Below, one piece after another: positions 25,225 through 31,937 of a stretch of DNA of 64,000 nucleotides; within the stretch, counting starts at the first letter, position 1; every line of letters starts with the position of its first letter. The position numbers and the translations under genes are program-made. This stretch comes from Escherichia phage vB_ESM-pEJ01. Below the pieces are notes generated by a model. The model saw only the letters and a program-made list of their open reading frames with translations, made no database searches and was not told where the DNA came from. The stretch lies in the sequence record OP114734.1. The stretch is one strand, 5' to 3'.

Positions 25225-26250
25225 CTAACTTTTTGCGTTATTTACTTCGGCTAAAAGTTCATCAGAAATACGCTTGACCGCCGCAAGTTCTTCCGGTTCT
25301 AGGTTTTGTTCTTCCAGATATTCATAGACCATCTGAATAGTGCTTTTAACTTCAATAACACCTGTTTCCTGTGATGCGCTACTCTCCAGTTTATGGACCA
25401 CCTTTAGCTTGTGTACAACGGCCTCTAACGCGCTTTCTAACTTAGTTAACCCATTATCAGCGACCGTTGCGATAAGACGCACACTAAGCCCTTTAAAGCG
25501 TTCGACATCGATTTTATCGTCTGACGGGTAAGTGATACGCACATGATAAGTTTTGTCATTCTGAATAAACTCTTTTTTGTGTGTATCGGTATCGAATACC
25601 CAAAAACCACGCGGATCGTTTTCGTCACCCGCCGTTAGTGTGTATGGTGTACCAATATACGTTACGTTACCGCCATCACTGATAGTATGAAAGTGACCCG
25701 AAAACACTTCACGGTATTTCTTGAGGAAGTCCGCGCTATAACCTTCGGATTTTAGCCCTTTATAGAAATAGTAACCGGACAATTCCCAATGGCCTACACA
25801 ATATTCGCTGAATGAGTTTTGAATAAACTCTAAAATCTCTGATTTATTGTCATCACAAAACCACGGGAACAGATCAAATGATACACCATCAAAGGTAACT
25901 GTTTCCGGTTTATCGATAACCTTAATGCAATCATACTGGCTTAACACTTCACGCGGTGCGTTAGGCTGGATCTTGTTTCGTTTAAACATATCATGATTCC
26001 CGACCGTGGTATAACAAGTAATATCAGCCTCTTCCAGTAACGGGATGACCTTAGTACGGTTAAATTTCATGGTTTCATGGGTAATTGCTTTTCGGCAATC
26101 AAACCAATCCCCTGTTTGAATCCATGTCTTAATATTATGCTCTTTGGAGTATTCAACCGCTTTCTTGATGGTATCAAGAATATACTCATGCACCCACGGA
26201 TCATCGCCACCGATACCAGTATGCAGATCACCTAAAAGCAAAATTTTCAT
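25225..26250 (-). CDS. 47: recombination endonuclease subunit gp47 (Mre11/SbcD-like)
   Basis: MKILLLGDLHTG, GNHDM, GHFH phosphoesterase motifs; GAGGAAG SD. Confidence 0.92.
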   Translation of the reverse strand: MKILLLGDLHTGIGGDDPWVHEYILDTIKKAVEYSKEHNIKTWIQTGDWFDCRKAITHETMKFNRTKVIPLLEEADITCYTTVGNHDMFKRNKIQPNAPREVLSQYDCIKVIDKPETVTFDGVSFDLFPWFCDDNKSEILEFIQNSFSEYCVGHWELSGYYFYKGLKSEGYSADFLKKYREVFSGHFHTISDGGNVTYIGTPYTLTAGDENDPRGFWVFDTDTHKKEFIQNDKTYHVRITYPSDDKIDVERFKGLSVRLIATVADNGLTKLESALEAVVHKLKVVHKLESSASQETGVIEVKSTIQMVYEYLEEQNLEPEELAAVKRISDELLAEVNNAKS

Positions 26251-26302
26251 AGTCTCTTCCTCTCTTCGTTTTCGATGCTCTCACTATATCACAGAAAAAT
26301 AA

Positions 26303-26318
26303 AAAGGGAAACCCCTTT
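26303..26318 (-). terminator. putative rho-independent terminator (aaaggg/cccttt hairpin plus U-run)
   Basis: Hairpin followed on minus transcript by UUAUUUUUC; just 3' of ORF 26341..26628. Confidence 0.35.
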
Positions 26319-26340
26319 CAGAGTCTCCCTTATAAAGCCA

Positions 26341-26628
26341 TTACAGCATACTTAATACCGTTTGCCGTGTACTAATCCACATAGCAGAAAGCAGTTCTGG
26401 CGTGTGTGGCTGTTTGTAGATATCACGTAATTTTCCGATAGCGTAGATATACGCATCACGATTATCATCGATGATAGCTTGTTCAGCCCACCGCTTAAGG
26501 CGTGCAATCTCTCGCGAGTTCTTACGCAAGATCTTTTCCGCTTTCTTAGCGGCTTTAGCCTCTAGTTCTGCTTGTACTTTGTCTACTTCATTCACTGCAA
26601 TCTGGTCATGCTGTTCATCGTAAGTCAT
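26341..26628 (-). CDS. hypothetical protein (95 aa)
   Basis: ORF track. Confidence 0.5.
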   Translation of the reverse strand: MTYDEQHDQIAVNEVDKVQAELEAKAAKKAEKILRKNSREIARLKRWAEQAIIDDNRDAYIYAIGKLRDIYKQPHTPELLSAMWISTRQTVLSML

Positions 26629-26629
26629 G

Positions 26630-26863
26630 TTATTTTCCTTCTGGGATATAGTCGATGATTAAAGAAAATTCATCTTCTGATACATTATAGCTATGTGAGA
26701 TTGTACCCGTAAAGACCTCAAGATCCGGTGATTTGATATTGCACGGATCGATAATCACCGGAACGCCGCAATCTCTCAAAAATAATTTGGCGAAATACGG
26801 CACGAGGTCAGTTTCAAACTCTGCTTCTTCCAGCAAACGGGAAATGTTAATTTTCAATCTCAT
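26630..26863 (-). CDS. hypothetical protein (77 aa)
   Basis: ORF track. Confidence 0.45.
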
Positions 26864-27380
26864 AAAATTGGTCCAGGCTAGGCAATTCCTCGGTCAATAC
26901 ATCTTCAACCTTTGGCGCTTTCGGTTTATTGACCGATTCCTCGTAGTTGTTGATTTTATCGTAAATGTCCTGTATGAATGCCTCATCAGCAATCTGGCAC
27001 ATATCAGCGTCGCGTTCGTCATATACATGATGCACAAAATATTTGTATTTTGCGGCTGTCGCTGTTCTCTCTTTTTTAATGCGCTGTACAAAAGCATTAA
27101 AGCACGCTTGCGTGATGTAAGCATGAGGATTTTTATACTTTGTCTCGTCAAAATTAATCAAACCCTTGACCGCCGCTTCGATTCCGTCGTCGATCATTTC
27201 TTCGCGCCATGTTTGACTATAACCAGAAAAGTTAAAACGACGTGATAGATTTTTAGAGATTTGCATAATTGCTAGGCCGATTTGATCGCTCATTGGAACT
27301 TGCCGACCTTCTGCTGCAATTTGTTGTTTCCAACGGCAAATTTCTTCGTAAAGCTCTTTATTGTTTACATAATCAGACAC
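26847..27380 (-). CDS. 55: late-transcription sigma factor gp55
   Basis: [50 protein letters not shown] match remembered T4 gp55. Confidence 0.9.
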
Positions 27381-27420
27381 TTCGCACCCTCGCTATTATT
27401 TAGGAAATAACCCTTTCGGG

Positions 27421-28890
27421 CTATTCCCCATTGCCATTATACTTTCTTTGCTTAGTTATCCACACTCTAACCATCTCTACTGATTCACCGTCAGACGGAT
27501 CAAGAGTTTTTCCTTTTTTCTTCATGCGGTACTTAAATCCGTTAAATCTTGCATTCTCTTGCTCGTTAAAGTCGAACATCTTTTTAAATGATTTTCGCCC
27601 TTTACGCTCACCACATTCTAGCGGAATCATTCGGTCTGTTATTACATTGGCATTAGGTAGAAACGTTTTTAGATAATCCACCAACGCCCAATCAGGAACA
27701 TATAGATTAACATTCTCCTTGCTCTCGTTGTCTCTCAGGTTACAACGCAAACATAATTGAAATGCTGGTTCCAGATAATCAGACACATGACGCGCTTTCA
27801 AAAACTCATTTGTCGGGAGATCACAACTATTAGCAAGACCTTTTAAAATATCAATCTCCCATCGTTGAGGGTTAAAGCTGAACATCACAGCAACATTTTT
27901 ATGATGAATGTAAGAGTTAAGACCATAAGATCCGTAAGGTATCCGCTCACCAATACCATTTGTACACGCTTCACGGTCCCGATTCACGGTATAAATGAAG
28001 TCATCACCACATTCATTTTTAACCATATCAACAAGACGTTCAAAGGTATTGTTTGTTTCTGACTGGTGACGCGACCATCGTTCGGAGTCCGTCATGAGGA
28101 TGATATTAACTCTATCTGTATTTTTATACTCTTTGAAATATAGTCGGGATTCTAGCGCACTCGGAACAAAATCGCAATTTTCATAGTATCGTAGATACTT
28201 CCCGCTATATGTATCAAAGAGATTTGCACATGCTATCGTAACCTTTTTAAAGTCTCCCCACGTACCGTGTTTGTTATCGTTCAAGAAAACAATTTTCGAC
28301 CCGTTCTTCCGGTGTCCTTCGTTATGTTTTACCATAACGTTGATTTTCTTCTCTAATAACGCCTCATAAAGCCCTCTAAGAGAAGAATCGATCATATCAG
28401 TACCATCCTTTGCACTTTCTATCTTTTCTTTGATAGCGGCCTTCTCAGAGTCTTTTAGAACTAAGTTCTGTAGGCATTCCGATTCGTCGGCGATTGGTTC
28501 GCAATGCTTCGTGATAAGTTCAAGATTAGACTTAAACGGATACTCATTAAATTCAACCAGTTGAGGAACTTCATCAATGTAAAGAGCATATTCACCAAAC
28601 ATTTTTGAACGTTCCATATTAGATAACGCTGTATGTGTAATGAATATCACATCAGCACCATCTTTAACTGATTGCATTATCGACGCTTGCACTGTCTTAA
28701 GGCTTCTTAGTCTTGTGCTATCAATCAAGACAGCACGACCGCCCATTCTTTTAAACTTATTGTAAGATTGTTCACTTAAAACACGAGATGGCGAAGCAAT
28801 AACCGCTTTTTCTTTTGTCTCTAGGACGTGGGAAAGTATAGCATCAGTTTTCCCCGCCGCTGGCAATGCGATTAATGTTTCAATCTTCAT
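27421..28890 (-). CDS. P-loop NTPase of unknown function (489 aa)
   Basis: Walker A LPAAGKT near N-terminus; candidate Walker B ALYIDEV about 95 aa later; large unassigned C-terminal region; sits where T4 carries alpha-gt. Confidence 0.6.
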   Translation of the reverse strand: MKIETLIALPAAGKTDAILSHVLETKEKAVIASPSRVLSEQSYNKFKRMGGRAVLIDSTRLRSLKTVQASIMQSVKDGADVIFITHTALSNMERSKMFGEYALYIDEVPQLVEFNEYPFKSNLELITKHCEPIADESECLQNLVLKDSEKAAIKEKIESAKDGTDMIDSSLRGLYEALLEKKINVMVKHNEGHRKNGSKIVFLNDNKHGTWGDFKKVTIACANLFDTYSGKYLRYYENCDFVPSALESRLYFKEYKNTDRVNIILMTDSERWSRHQSETNNTFERLVDMVKNECGDDFIYTVNRDREACTNGIGERIPYGSYGLNSYIHHKNVAVMFSFNPQRWEIDILKGLANSCDLPTNEFLKARHVSDYLEPAFQLCLRCNLRDNESKENVNLYVPDWALVDYLKTFLPNANVITDRMIPLECGERKGRKSFKKMFDFNEQENARFNGFKYRMKKKGKTLDPSDGESVEMVRVWITKQRKYNGNGE

Positions 28891-29177
28891 TAGAAACCCT
28901 TACGTCGTGCTTTCTGGCATTTCTTGATCATTTTATCAGAAATTTCGCGCTTAGGTGCAATCTCTTTCACACCGAAAGCACTAATGCCAAATTCAGAGAG
29001 AATATATTCAACTAACAATTCACGCACACGCGCTTTACCGATATTCACGCCGTTATTTTTCAGATATGTCTGACCTTCGACTTGCATCAGATCTAAATCT
29101 GCGTCGGTAATATTGATTTCTTCCATGCGCCCAAATCGAGAATAAACCATGTGTGCGATTGCATTGTGTACTAACAT
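28890..29177 (-). CDS. hypothetical protein (about 95 aa)
   Basis: Track ORF 28890..29195 begins at TTG; ATG at 29177 has GAGGA SD. Confidence 0.5.
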   Translation of the reverse strand: MLVHNAIAHMVYSRFGRMEEINITDADLDLMQVEGQTYLKNNGVNIGKARVRELLVEYILSEFGISAFGVKEIAPKREISDKMIKKCQKARRKGF

Positions 29178-29198
29178 AATATATTCCTCACTCAAGAA

Positions 29199-29357
29199 TT
29201 ACTTAATGATACTTACTTTACCAGATCCGTGACAATGAGCGCAACACCCATCACCACGCAATCCTGTTCCGTTACAGTGTTTACACTTCTTCAACGGTAA
29301 AGCCATTATAGCAAATAAAGCAATAATGAATACCGAAACTAAATTCTCAATAATCAT
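29199..29357 (-). CDS. small membrane-anchored protein with DnaJ-type zinc finger (52 aa), not in ORF track
   Basis: MIIENLVSVFIIALFAIMALPLKKCKHCNGTGLRGDGCCAHCHGSGKVSIIK: one hydrophobic helix then two CxxCxGxG repeats; GAGGG SD. Confidence 0.4.
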   Translation of the reverse strand: MIIENLVSVFIIALFAIMALPLKKCKHCNGTGLRGDGCCAHCHGSGKVSIIK

Positions 29358-29616
29358 AAATCGCCCTCAGTTCTTTATAGCCTCCAATGTGCTCGTTGTC
29401 AATGAATATCTGGGGGTATACAAACCGGAGGCTCTTTGAGTTTAGCCTCCCCGCCAGTTCTTCAATCATATCACGGTCGGGAATAATGTCAACCCCGACC
29501 TGCTTGAATACTGGTTTAAGTGTATACGGAATACCCAGATCATCCAGTAGCTTCATTGCACTAATACAACCATAACAATGATAAGCCTCTTTCGGTATAC
29601 CGTATATCTCGATCAT
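29347..29616 (-). CDS. glutaredoxin/NrdH-like redoxin
   Basis: CxxC active site YHCYGC near N-terminus, 89 aa. Confidence 0.7.
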   Translation of the reverse strand: MIEIYGIPKEAYHCYGCISAMKLLDDLGIPYTLKPVFKQVGVDIIPDRDMIEELAGRLNSKSLRFVYPQIFIDNEHIGGYKELRAIYDY

Positions 29617-30089
29617 TTCTCAGCCTTTAATCTTTCTAGTTCTTCTTCCAGTTCCTTGATCCGTTGGTCGCGTTCAAAGTCACGCTGTAACTTAGTGGCG
29701 AATACTCGTTTAAACTGATTGTAATCATCGATTTTAAACACTTCTTCTTCGCCATAGCGACGCACAGAAACTTCGTAGTTATTGAAGAATTGTTGCATCA
29801 TTGCTTCGGATGATAGTTCTGCTGATACTACTTTAAAATATTGATCTTCTGTAGGCGAAAACCAATTACAAGCATAAAGATAAACCTTTTCATTGTCTGG
29901 ACACTGGTAAGCCTTACCATCGATTTCAATCACAGAAACATATTCAGGTATACTAGATGAATCAATAGCTAAGACTTTAAACGCACGGTCCCCGATAAAC
30001 TCGGAGATCACACGATTCGCATCACTGGTTGCAAATGCTTTACGCGCTTGTTCGTTTTTCCACTGATAGGTCATACCAACAACAAACAT
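29613..30089 (-). CDS. modular paralog family member (one N-terminal beta-domain plus conserved C-terminal helical module)
   Basis: VGMTYQWKNEQARKAF...FKVLAID...IEIDGKAY...WF; start set to ATG 30089 (GAGGA SD); paralogous to neighbours. Confidence 0.55.
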   Translation of the reverse strand: MFVVGMTYQWKNEQARKAFATSDANRVISEFIGDRAFKVLAIDSSSIPEYVSVIEIDGKAYQCPDNEKVYLYACNWFSPTEDQYFKVVSAELSSEAMMQQFFNNYEVSVRRYGEEEVFKIDDYNQFKRVFATKLQRDFERDQRIKELEEELERLKAEK

Positions 30090-30090
30090 A

Positions 30091-30915
30091 TTACCATCCT
30101 CGCTCTTTACCAATCAAAAATTCAACTTCACGACGTTTAATGTCTTCTTGAAGGTCTTTAATCTTCTGGCGATCTTGCATGATTTCATCCATCTTGTCAA
30201 GTGCCGCAATGAAATCATCGAAACGTTCAAAGGTTTTACCTTCATTTGCTTCGCCAAATTTAACCATTGTCAGGCCGTAACGACTACTAAACAGACGTTT
30301 CAACTGTCCAACGATTTTAGAATCAGTGGTTATAACTTCCAATTCTTCTACTTCACGAAAGAATTTTCTATCAGAATCAATAAACCAGCTAGTTCCTTTA
30401 TGGTCTCTATCTTCGGTTGCGCTCATTAGAGTATGGTCTTTACCATCAATTTCAATTACATCAATTTGCCCACATGGACTAACATTTTTAACAGTAAAAG
30501 GTCTATAATTTATTGCTCGTGCAATAACATAATTAAGGTTAGATACGTTTTCAGCATAATGGCAGAAGTCGGTCATAGCATTCGCATCTTTCCAAGTATA
30601 AGTTTTACCAACTTCCCATTTCTGGGGAACTTCTTCAACTTCACGAAAGAATTTTCTATCGAATGGACTAAAGAAATATGTTGCCGTCCAAATGTCTTTT
30701 CCTGTAGCAGTTTTCGCCGTATGATAAACACCGTCTAGCTCTATTGCATAAATCCAACCGTTACCATCGATCTCGATGATGGTAAATGGCTTGTCACCAA
30801 TAGCTGCACTAATATCGCTGTTAAGTGGAGAAAGAACACCTTCTCCGTTAGTAATAAACTCAGTTTTAGCGTTTTCGTCTTTCCAGGTGTAAGTTTTACC
30901 AATTTCCCATTTCAT
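30091..30915 (-). CDS. modular paralog family member with two tandem N-terminal domains
   Basis: MKWEIGKTYTWKDENAKTEF... and QKWEVGKTYTWKDANAMTDF..., both ending DRKFFREVEE; DNA repeat cttcacgaaagaattttctatc at 30351 and 30639. Confidence 0.6.
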   Translation of the reverse strand: MKWEIGKTYTWKDENAKTEFITNGEGVLSPLNSDISAAIGDKPFTIIEIDGNGWIYAIELDGVYHTAKTATGKDIWTATYFFSPFDRKFFREVEEVPQKWEVGKTYTWKDANAMTDFCHYAENVSNLNYVIARAINYRPFTVKNVSPCGQIDVIEIDGKDHTLMSATEDRDHKGTSWFIDSDRKFFREVEELEVITTDSKIVGQLKRLFSSRYGLTMVKFGEANEGKTFERFDDFIAALDKMDEIMQDRQKIKDLQEDIKRREVEFLIGKERGW

Positions 30916-30927
30916 AATATATTCCCC

Positions 30928-31395
30928 TTAACCGATTTTATCAAGTTCGTTTAATGCTTTCTCTGCTTCCTGTATAGCTTGCACCCTTTCCGGCATTTTG
31001 TCAAGAAAATCTTTCAACTCTTCAAAACTGGAGATATGACGCAAGGCGTTAGCACCGATAGCCGCATGTGATTTGCATTCAAAGCGGATTTTATAATTAT
31101 CCATCGCCAACTTGAGAAGATCAATTAATTTAGATTCTTCTGGAATAATAATAATTTCTTCAAATCTGCTACGGTCATGATCCAGAAACCAACAAGATAG
31201 ACCTACATCGGTTGAACTCATATAAGTTCCATCATGAAGATAAACAGATCGCACGTATCCTTTTTTCGCATCAACCGACGCAACTTTAAACGGTAATCGC
31301 AGATATTTCAAATAATCAACATCATACCATTTAAAAAATTGGTTTGCATCTTTTACATCTTTCCACGCATAGGTCTTACCAACTTCCCATTTCAT
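30928..31395 (-). CDS. modular paralog family member
   Basis: MKWEVGKTYAWKD...FKVASVD; start set to ATG 31395. Confidence 0.55.
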   Translation of the reverse strand: MKWEVGKTYAWKDVKDANQFFKWYDVDYLKYLRLPFKVASVDAKKGYVRSVYLHDGTYMSSTDVGLSCWFLDHDRSRFEEIIIIPEESKLIDLLKLAMDNYKIRFECKSHAAIGANALRHISSFEELKDFLDKMPERVQAIQEAEKALNELDKIG

Positions 31396-31399
31396 AATA

Positions 31400-31927
31400 T
31401 CATCTCTCATTTTTGATACGTGATTCTAATTGGATCATACGGTCGCGCGTTTGTTTGTATTCTCGGATAGCACCGATCCGGCTAGGCATACCATCCAGTA
31501 CGCTCTTAATACCTTCTAGGGTAGTAATTTTGGCAATGCTATTATGTAACCCCATCTTATCGATCAACTGAATGTCGTAGGCTTCCATAAGCAGACCCAG
31601 ACGTTCTAAAGTTAGGTCTTCTTCTTTTTCTTTCGATTCTGGAATCTTAGGTTCAATAGTAACTTCGGTAAAGAAACGACGCTCACCAGCCCAAAACCAC
31701 ACACCATAACAATTGATAGAAGATTCTTTTAACGTCATCGGCTCGGTATCTTCACCGATAATGGTAATTTCACTAACATCACCATCAGCATCAAGTGCTT
31801 CTACCTTAAACGAACGACCGTTCAACAGGTCAATAATCATACTGTTAATGGATGACGAAAATTTAGTCAGTTCAGCTTTTGATATTTCACACTTAATGTT
31901 GTAGATCTTACCTACTTCCCATTCCAT
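31400..31927 (-). CDS. modular paralog family member
   Basis: MEWEVGKIYNIK...FKVEALD...RRFFTEV; start set to ATG 31927 (GAGGTGA SD). Confidence 0.55.
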   Translation of the reverse strand: MEWEVGKIYNIKCEISKAELTKFSSSINSMIIDLLNGRSFKVEALDADGDVSEITIIGEDTEPMTLKESSINCYGVWFWAGERRFFTEVTIEPKIPESKEKEEDLTLERLGLLMEAYDIQLIDKMGLHNSIAKITTLEGIKSVLDGMPSRIGAIREYKQTRDRMIQLESRIKNER

Positions 31928-31937
31928 AATAATCACC

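Follow-up and report, generated by a model that had tools for sequence, protein, structure and literature searches.

Replication and recombination in T4-type phages form a textbook system with three helicases, gp41, Dda and UvsW. The present analysis concerns a further helicase-type gene of these phages, found on the minus strand of a 64,000-nucleotide stretch (hereafter, the window) of sequence record OP114734.1, from Escherichia phage vB_ESM-pEJ01, a T4-type, RB49-like Krischvirus. Its 489-residue product matches RB49 ORF044c (AAQ15319.1) at 99.8% identity; that entry bears no annotation beyond hypothetical protein, and no literature was found on RB49 ORF044c or on an XPD-like helicase in T4-like phages.

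Several described proteins come close to it. Kazlauskas et al. pointed out in 2018, in one sentence, a group of proteins from "some T4-like phages" (pVOG1685, with pVOG9714 as its sister group), which they predicted to form a new family of viral and plasmid helicases, with remote similarity to superfamily 2 (SF2) and related to the helicase domains fused to archaeo-eukaryotic primases (AEP); neither a fold nor experiments were presented (PMC5862659). The short-type DinG (sDinG) of some cyanobacteria is composed of MD1, Arch and MD2, with no iron-sulphur (FeS) domain and a degenerate ATP site (PMC11981726). Finally, the insertion sequence (IS)-excision enhancer, IEE, of E. coli O157 combines an AEP primase-polymerase with an SF2 helicase-like domain (PMC9943667).

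A helicase-fold gene conserved in T4-like phages

The open reading frame (ORF) was verified at exactly the position and with the length that a first-pass annotation of this DNA had given (Table 1). Homologues were recovered by tblastn in 243 phage records, nearly full length in 237 of them and with 34–42% identity between genera, which indicates that this is a real gene and not a chance ORF. The hosts of these phages include Escherichia and Shigella (Krischvirus), Aeromonas, Cronobacter, Citrobacter and Enterobacter (Pseudotevenvirus type), Proteus, Morganella, Providencia, Serratia and Erwinia, among others. The protein is assigned to phrog_2467 in PHROGs, with function unknown, and no family was found for it in NCBIfam.

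Conservation was assessed in a phage-clade alignment of 25 homologues, down to 32% identity; numbering in the alignment and in the predicted model is the true residue number, used here, minus 1, the initial Met being absent. Both Walker motifs, A and B, were situated where the first pass had placed them, with 92 residues from K14 to D106, and G13, K14, T15, D106 and E107 were invariant; loss of the acidic Walker B residues in homologues had been named as counting against the NTPase assignment, and both were kept in 25 of 25. The Walker A K and T were also invariant across 19 long relatives (described below), as were the D and E of motif II in the long-relative alignment. Motif II reads DEVP, neither DEAD nor DEAH. 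Moreover, the invariant blocks followed one another in SF2 motif order, namely Ia (IASxSRxLSxQS, a strand and then a helix in the predicted model), an Ib-like strand (VIFITHxAL), II (YIDEVP), III (VTIAxAN), a V-like block (PYxxxGLNxY...NVxVxFSxNP) and VI (EPAFQLCxRxNxR), in which Q378, R382 and R386 were invariant and had invariant equivalents in the 19 long relatives.

The last ~330 residues, in which no motif had been recognized initially, were found to contain SF2 motifs III, IV-like, V-like and VI, and structure prediction resolved them into the end of RecA domain 1, a second RecA domain and a helical tail. The nuclease or glycosyltransferase fold for which a check of this part had been suggested was looked for among the structure matches and in Pfam, and neither of these nor a methylase was present. 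The tail is specific to the phage clade and lies outside the region common to the long relatives, where the hhalign alignment ends at alignment residue 418 (true 419); no family matched residues 422–489. Pfam detected only an N-terminal DEAD/DEAH domain (27.4 bits against a cut-off of 26). With two tandem RecA-like domains and motifs I (GKT), II (DExx) and VI (Q/R...R) in order, the protein has the features that define SF2, and its fold and ATPase assignment can be made with considerable confidence.

Table 1. Coordinates of the helicase gene, its motifs and domains, the genes and signals around it, and related loci elsewhere (window positions, unless a locus handle precedes them)
Feature	Position	Strand	Remarks
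Helicase gene, complete ORF with stop	27421..28890	(-)	489 aa; RB49 ORF044c equivalent; predicted divergent SF2 helicase-fold ATPase
Motif I / Walker A, LPAAGKT, residues 9-15 (K14, T15)	28846..28866	(-)	P, G, K, T invariant in 25 homologues
Motif Ia-like block, IASPSRVLSEQS, residues 31-42	28765..28800	(-)	A, S, L, Q, S invariant; SF2 motif Ia position
Motif II / Walker B, ALYIDEVP, residues 102-109 (D106, E107)	28564..28587	(-)	L, D, E, P invariant in 25 homologues
Alpha/beta insertion in RecA domain 1, between motifs II and III, 107 residues (110-216)	28243..28563	(-)	XPD/DinG Arch position
Motif III-like strand, VTIACANL, residues 217-224	28219..28242	(-)	T invariant, N nearly so; strand in predicted model
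RecA domain 2, about residues 252-421	27628..28137	(-)	Contains V-like block and motif VI
V-like block, PYGSYGLNSY...VAVMFSFNP	27868-27939	(-)	Within RecA domain 2
Motif VI, EPAFQLCLRCNLRD (Q378, R382, R386)	27730-27771	(-)	Within RecA domain 2
C-terminal tail, residues 422-489	27424..27627	(-)	Basic, 17 K+R vs 10 D+E; three predicted helices
55.2 homologue, upstream gene	28890..29195	(-)	42% identity to T4 gp55.2, E=9e-20; Pfam DUF7570, E=1e-28
Gene 55 (late sigma factor), downstream	26847..27380	(-)	40 nt past helicase stop; RB49 annotation and tblastn
Gap between helicase gene and gene 55	27381-27420	(-)	40 nt
Sigma-70-type promoter-like site inside nrdH	29465..29492	(-)	TTGACA, 16-nt spacer, TG, TATGAT; 11/12 matches, consensus scan only
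Intrinsic-terminator-like hairpin past a-gt.4	26304..26331	(-)	12 pairs and T-run; consensus scan
a-gt.4	26341-26628		~90 bp gap to gene 47, with strong terminator-like hairpin
Gene 47	25225-26250		
ORF between nrdH and 55.2 (RB49 ORF046c)	29199-29357	(-)	52 aa
Four tandem ORFs between nrdG and nrdH (RB49 ORF048c-051c)	29613-31936	(-)	166, 274, 160 and 178 aa
HNH/AP2 endonuclease gene ORF040c, RB49	L001 8641-9195		Between a-gt.4 and gene 47
DprA-like gene, Aeromonas phage Aes012	L002 4429-5004		Also in L027-L029 and L045; annotation
Long form, Agrobacterium phage Atu_ph07	L011 5995-8283		Annotated hypothetical
Metagenomic island	L048 2401-11408		
Metagenomic island	L009 8168-12445		

Predicted XPD/DinG-like architecture and its limits

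Two separate predicted models, one of the phage protein and one of a long relative, both had XPD and DinG as their best structural matches in Foldseek. XPD/DinG matches spanned about 320–354 residues, with alignments ~100 residues longer than those obtained with generic SF2 cores, and in the predicted model the 107-residue insertion sits exactly at the position of the Arch domain. These predicted models support a full SF2 two-RecA core of XPD/DinG-like architecture. In this way, the helicase or translocase that had been guessed from motif spacing is retained and sharpened, and the DNA-modification, anti-restriction or defence role that had been attached to the presumed locus gained no support. 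Strands 3 and 4 of domain 1 are separated by ~24 residues with one helix, and neither an FeS domain (four Cys) nor a pseudo-FeS domain is present; no cysteine occurs before residue 130 of the protein and the only family-invariant ones are C130 and C380. In build, the protein resembles a minimal XPD/DinG helicase; the predicted structure suggests membership of this family, one defining feature of which, the FeS domain, is absent.

The marginal Pfam DEAD match would fit a DEAD-box-type RNA helicase acting on phage or host transcripts, an explanation that is scarcely credible. The DEAD-box structural matches covered one domain only (about 135–165 residues), against the much longer XPD/DinG matches, and the DEAD-box signatures (Q-motif, DEAD, SAT and HRIGRxGR) are absent from the family, which has DEVP, (T)IAxAN and QLCxRxNxR. 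Moreover, its fusion partners and contexts, presented below, are DNA-related.

On balance, it is probable that the gene encodes an ATP-driven, XPD/DinG-like DNA helicase or translocase that acts early, as a fourth accessory helicase on replication and recombination intermediates, beside gp41, Dda and UvsW. Its SF2 motor would consist of RecA domain 1 with the Arch-like insertion, RecA domain 2 and a short basic C-terminal tail, with no FeS domain, and it would be co-transcribed early with the homologue of the topoisomerase I inhibitor 55.2 and with gene 55. We infer that its substrate would be DNA and not RNA; the protein would most likely translocate on single-stranded DNA and remodel, possibly by unwinding, R-loops, D-loops or forks of the phage, most likely in replication or recombination. 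A 5′-3′ direction would be expected by analogy with XPD and DinG only.

Several observations weigh against this reading. The FeS or pseudo-FeS domain of XPD and DinG is part of the DNA pore and of the strand-separation wedge; this domain is absent here and, therefore, the protein could be a non-unwinding translocase. The kinship with XPD and DinG is seen in predicted structures only. The Pfam families DEAD_2 and Helicase_C_2 did not match the ORF at E≤1, and hhalign against E. coli DinG gave non-significant probabilities of 0.6–2.8%, a sequence-level link being rejected with values below 3%. Similarly, single-sequence and profile searches of PDB sequences with the helicase ORF returned chance matches only. 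Homology to a characterized replication ATPase, which the first-pass annotation had named as counting against its view, likewise appears in predicted structure and not in sequence. Moreover, the genomic contexts of the long relatives are heterogeneous, no primase fold could be assigned to the alpha/beta part of their fused module, and in some primase-associated helicase-like domains, that of IEE among them, ATP hydrolysis is not accompanied by unwinding (PMC9943667).

The loss of the wedge domain leaves room for a non-unwinding DNA translocase or remodeller, which would displace proteins, for example RNA polymerase, those of the nucleoid or complexes of host defence, or would stabilize DNA synapsis. 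This explanation is quite unlikely, since the best structural matches are true helicases with an accessory insertion, IEE is not a detectable relative, and all the ATPase residues are intact, unlike those of sDinG.

Stand-alone and fused forms of the family

The helicase core was searched for exhaustively, by profile, among 1.84 billion representative proteins; with clusters defined at 50% identity, it is present in 1,347 clusters at E≤1e-3 and in 777 at E≤1e-10. Among the 146 closest clusters, 78 presented the core only, as in the phages, 67 carried in addition one common C-terminal module of ~310 residues, and one (P0128) had only a long N-terminal extension; no other long C-terminal extension was found in this set. 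The cores of the phage proteins and of the long relatives are unambiguously homologous (hhalign 100%, E 9e-49, over alignment residues 1–418; tblastn E about 1e-16). Split gene pairs, in which core and module are adjacent separate genes, were also found.

The fused module matched Pfam PriCT_1 (primase C-terminal 1) in one of 12 sequences (E=1.2e-3), one of its fragments is labelled "Primase C-terminal 1 domain-containing protein" in UniRef, and its conserved GxGNxxFFxxAxxL block appears, by eye, to fit PriCT-1. Upstream of this block, the alpha/beta part contains D-x-[ED], in which the D does not vary and the acidic residue is conserved, together with an R and a further D that are likewise invariant; in the long relative P0043, whose module spans about residues 490–799, the two D are D579 and D661 and the acidic residue is 581. 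An AEP active site of the D-x-E / H / D type was considered for this part and not substantiated, and the presumed histidine is not conserved. No match to the module was obtained in a profile search of PDB sequences or in tblastn against plasmids, a profile search of a large protein database recovered mostly fragments of the helicase family itself, and in Foldseek with the full-length model of a long relative the helicase part dominated the matches.

In P0128, the core is preceded by a 370-residue extension in which AEP-looking motifs (IIVFDFDED, GSGHVYVKV and LFDMSVF) were noted by eye; Pfam detected no AEP domain in this protein, and the comparison of the fused module with its AEP-like N-terminus by hhalign was negative. 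The description given by Kazlauskas et al. fits and, because the only phage relatives of this AEP-first protein are the present T4-like proteins, the ORF family is very probably their group, with pVOG1685 as the putative assignment. In the dominant fusion observed here the order is the opposite, the helicase preceding the PriCT-1-like module.

Integrative elements usually carry their replication genes just downstream of integrase and AlpA. The long forms stand in mobile-element contexts. Two independent metagenomic islands (L048 and L009) presented a P4-type integrase, AlpA/HTH_17, the helicase with a fused or separate PriCT-1-like module, and variable cargo, which includes DUF927 putative helicase genes in L048 and Metallophos, PLDc_2, phosphatase/ADP-ribosylglycohydrolase and Mrr_cat genes in L009. 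These islands look like an undescribed satellite or island family. Other contexts contained resolvases, transposases or a DNA ligase. A full-length long form, with core and module, was also found in the Agrobacterium jumbo phage Atu_ph07 (490 kb; 99% coverage of P0043, E 6e-40) and, therefore, the fused form is not confined to bacterial islands.

These architectures bear on the idea that the phage protein is a priming-coupled initiator helicase, i.e., the stand-alone half of a mobile-element helicase-primase, which would open origins or R-loops and recruit gp61 or the host primase. This would amount to an alternative replication initiation, which may be tied to the R-loop-favouring topoisomerase I inhibitor gp55.2. 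Such a role is unlikely, although it is in line with the fusion of the core to a weakly PriCT-1-similar module in ~46% of the closest clusters, the split core/module pairs, the two integrase-AlpA-helicase islands, the AEP-like motifs seen by eye in P0128 and the AEP primase link predicted in the literature (PMC5862659). Within the window, neither a PriCT-1-like module nor a second copy of the helicase is encoded, and the resemblance of the fused module to a primase is weak. Moreover, XPD/DinG-type helicases are not known to act in replication as replicative or initiator helicases, which also counts against this role.

A broader proposal, which is doubtful as well, would make an FeS-less, minimal XPD/DinG-like clade of phages and integrative elements, together with the PriCT-1-type module, a new SF2-based primosome; mobile-element primases are normally paired with hexameric SF3, SF4 or MCM helicases. 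In many T4-like phages, the stand-alone form would manage R-loops with gp55.2, which would promote them while the helicase would convert or clear them, a pathway that T4 itself would not have.

Gene neighbourhood and comparison with known systems

The first-pass annotation had placed the ORF at the T4 alpha-glucosyltransferase (alpha-gt) locus and had raised from this a role in DNA modification, anti-restriction or defence. In the T4 annotation, the order along transcription is nrdD-mobC-nrdG-55.8-nrdH-55.6...55.3-55.2-55.1-55-a-gt.5-a-gt.4-a-gt.3-a-gt.2-mobB-a-gt-47.1-47, so that alpha-gt lies between genes 55 and 47, on the 47.1 side of gene 55, and the ORF lies between 55.2 and 55. The place that corresponds to alpha-gt in the window, between a-gt.4 and gene 47, is an intergenic gap. 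Moreover, in Erwinia phage Cronus a homologue of the helicase precedes gene 55 and a bona fide alpha-glucosyltransferase adjoins gene 47, as in T4, and the two are, therefore, independent genes. The T4 gene order and the presence of both genes in Cronus ruled out the link to a DNA-modification or alpha-gt locus. The slot between 55.2 and 55 is occupied in T4 by 55.1, which encodes an unrelated 87-residue protein; its origin as a remnant of the helicase gene was rejected (hhalign probability 0.4%).

With this premise false and no positive evidence found, a conflict function, in which the protein would be an NTPase serving defence, superinfection exclusion or anti-defence, in the manner of CasDinG, Hna or restriction-type motors, is very unlikely. 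Cronus has the gene together with alpha-gt, the protein contains no nuclease, methylase or glycosyltransferase domain, and the PADLOC models gave a single non-significant match to the helicase ORF, at E=0.009 and along 60 residues, the model being an unrelated one. Its fixed position across genera at 34–42% identity suggests a long vertical inheritance and not the turnover typical of conflict genes. Similarly, the island copies belong to the conserved module beside the integrase, and not to the variable cargo.

Directly upstream of the helicase gene lies the 55.2 homologue, whose stop overlaps the helicase start (TAATG, read from the sequence), and the helicase gene is predicted to be translationally coupled to it. 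[quoted passage not shown] In a position survey of 29 T4-like loci from IMG/VR, a 55.2 homologue ended within ~100 nt of the helicase start in 20, was found within ~1.4 kb of the helicase in seven more and was not detected in two, and gene 55 was directly downstream in 21. In the Pseudotevenvirus group, nrdH-55.2-helicase is kept and tail-fibre gene 34 stands downstream instead. The coupling to 55.2, its adjacency and the effect of T4 gp55.2 on R-loop-dependent plasmid replication are points in favour of a priming-coupled initiator; the conserved T4-type gene order alone could, however, explain the adjacency, and 0.4–1.4 kb of other genes intervene in the Aeromonas 25/44RR-type phages. At the place of 55.2, phages of the Aeromonas 25/44RR/Aes012 type present a gene for a "DprA-like DNA recombination-mediator protein", directly upstream of the helicase homologue and overlapping it, which may be another hint of a recombination link.

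Transcription signals were assessed by scanning. The promoter-like site inside nrdH, the terminator-like hairpin, which is the likely end of the transcription unit, and the absence of the late-promoter motif TATAAATA near the helicase gene in a motif scan suggest an early unit comprising ORF046-55.2-helicase-55-a-gt.5-a-gt.4, with the site in nrdH as its candidate promoter. The gap between the helicase gene and gene 55 contains a small CCC-GAAA-GGG hairpin, then TTATTT and a GAGGGTG Shine-Dalgarno-like sequence, gene 55 starting with GTG; this may be an element for attenuation or RNA stability, or have arisen by chance.

Other features of the region were also observed. Since only ~90 bp are left between gene 47 and a-gt.4 (26250-26341), pEJ01 is a Krischvirus without the putative homing endonuclease of the ORF040c type present in RB49. 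The 52-aa ORF between nrdH and 55.2 has an N-terminal hydrophobic helix, followed by a DnaJ-type zinc-finger motif (CxxCxGxG...CxxCxGxG), matched weakly by DnaJ central-domain models. The four tandem ORFs between nrdG and nrdH have in common an N-terminal module of ~90 residues (WE[VI]GKTYxWKD ... F[KT]V ... IEIDG ... WF ... DRxFFxEV), which occurs twice in the 274-aa ORF, and charged, probably coiled-coil C-terminal tails; no Pfam family matched these ORFs, which are a local paralogous expansion.

The SF2 helicase fold was already known, and the family had been flagged once, in that single sentence, as a putative new helicase family. What is new is the FeS-less XPD/DinG-like assignment, the two-architecture family and its size, the context close to an integrase and the corrected locus, which removes a false lead, the gene having no connection with the hydroxymethylcytosine glucosylation locus. 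These results point to a conserved, unannotated fourth helicase-type motor in a large subset of T4-like phages, among them Krischvirus, the majority of Aeromonas T4-like phages, Pseudotevenvirus and groups with Proteus, Morganella, Serratia and Erwinia as hosts. The class assignment predicts an ATPase stimulated by single-stranded DNA, a 5′-3′ polarity and an action on R-loops and D-loops. Moreover, the widespread core and its frequent fusion to a PriCT-1-like module point to an unstudied helicase-primase pairing in mobile-element replication, and the DinG-like superfamily would extend into phages and islands; a recent review of DinG-like proteins, limited to bacteria, covers neither phage nor primase-associated forms.

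Among known systems, IEE is, to our knowledge, the only biochemically studied AEP and SF2 fusion. Like the long forms, it joins a primase-type module to an SF2 motor, and its gene lies downstream of the integrase of an integrative element, a few genes away; its domain order is reversed. Homology of its helicase domain was not detectable by hhalign (probability 1.5% with the phage profile and 26% with that of the long forms, over motifs I–II only), and kinship was rejected, IEE being an analogue and not a relative. The herpesvirus protein UL9, to which pVOG9714 has been likened (PMC5862659), showed no likeness to the present family; an origin-binding protein of this type was rejected, since Herpes_ori_bp (PF02399) gave no Pfam match at E≤1, and the 50 best matches from the viral structure library included no UL9 fold.

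The FeS-less forms of XPD/Rad3/DinG, such as CasDinG, the Gram-positive exonuclease-DinG and sDinG, share with the ORF two RecA motors and an insertion in domain 1 between motifs II and III, and the layout of the motif V/VI region of XPD and DinG is similar, as judged by eye from the alignment. In contrast to XPD/DinG, the ORF has no FeS or pseudo-FeS domain, its motif II is DEVP instead of DEAH, its Arch-like insertion is much smaller and no sequence similarity is detectable; its family, moreover, occurs in phages and mobile elements, frequently as a fusion with the weakly PriCT-1-similar module. The nearest architectural analogue in the literature is sDinG, from which the ORF differs in that its ATPase site is intact. 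Within the T4 system, RB49 retains the genes for gp41, gp61, Dda and UvsW, and the ORF as a substitute for a missing T4 helicase was rejected on this basis. Instead, the niche proposed for it is that of T4 UvsW (SF2) and Dda (SF1), the non-replicative early helicases that process R-loops, D-loops and forks.

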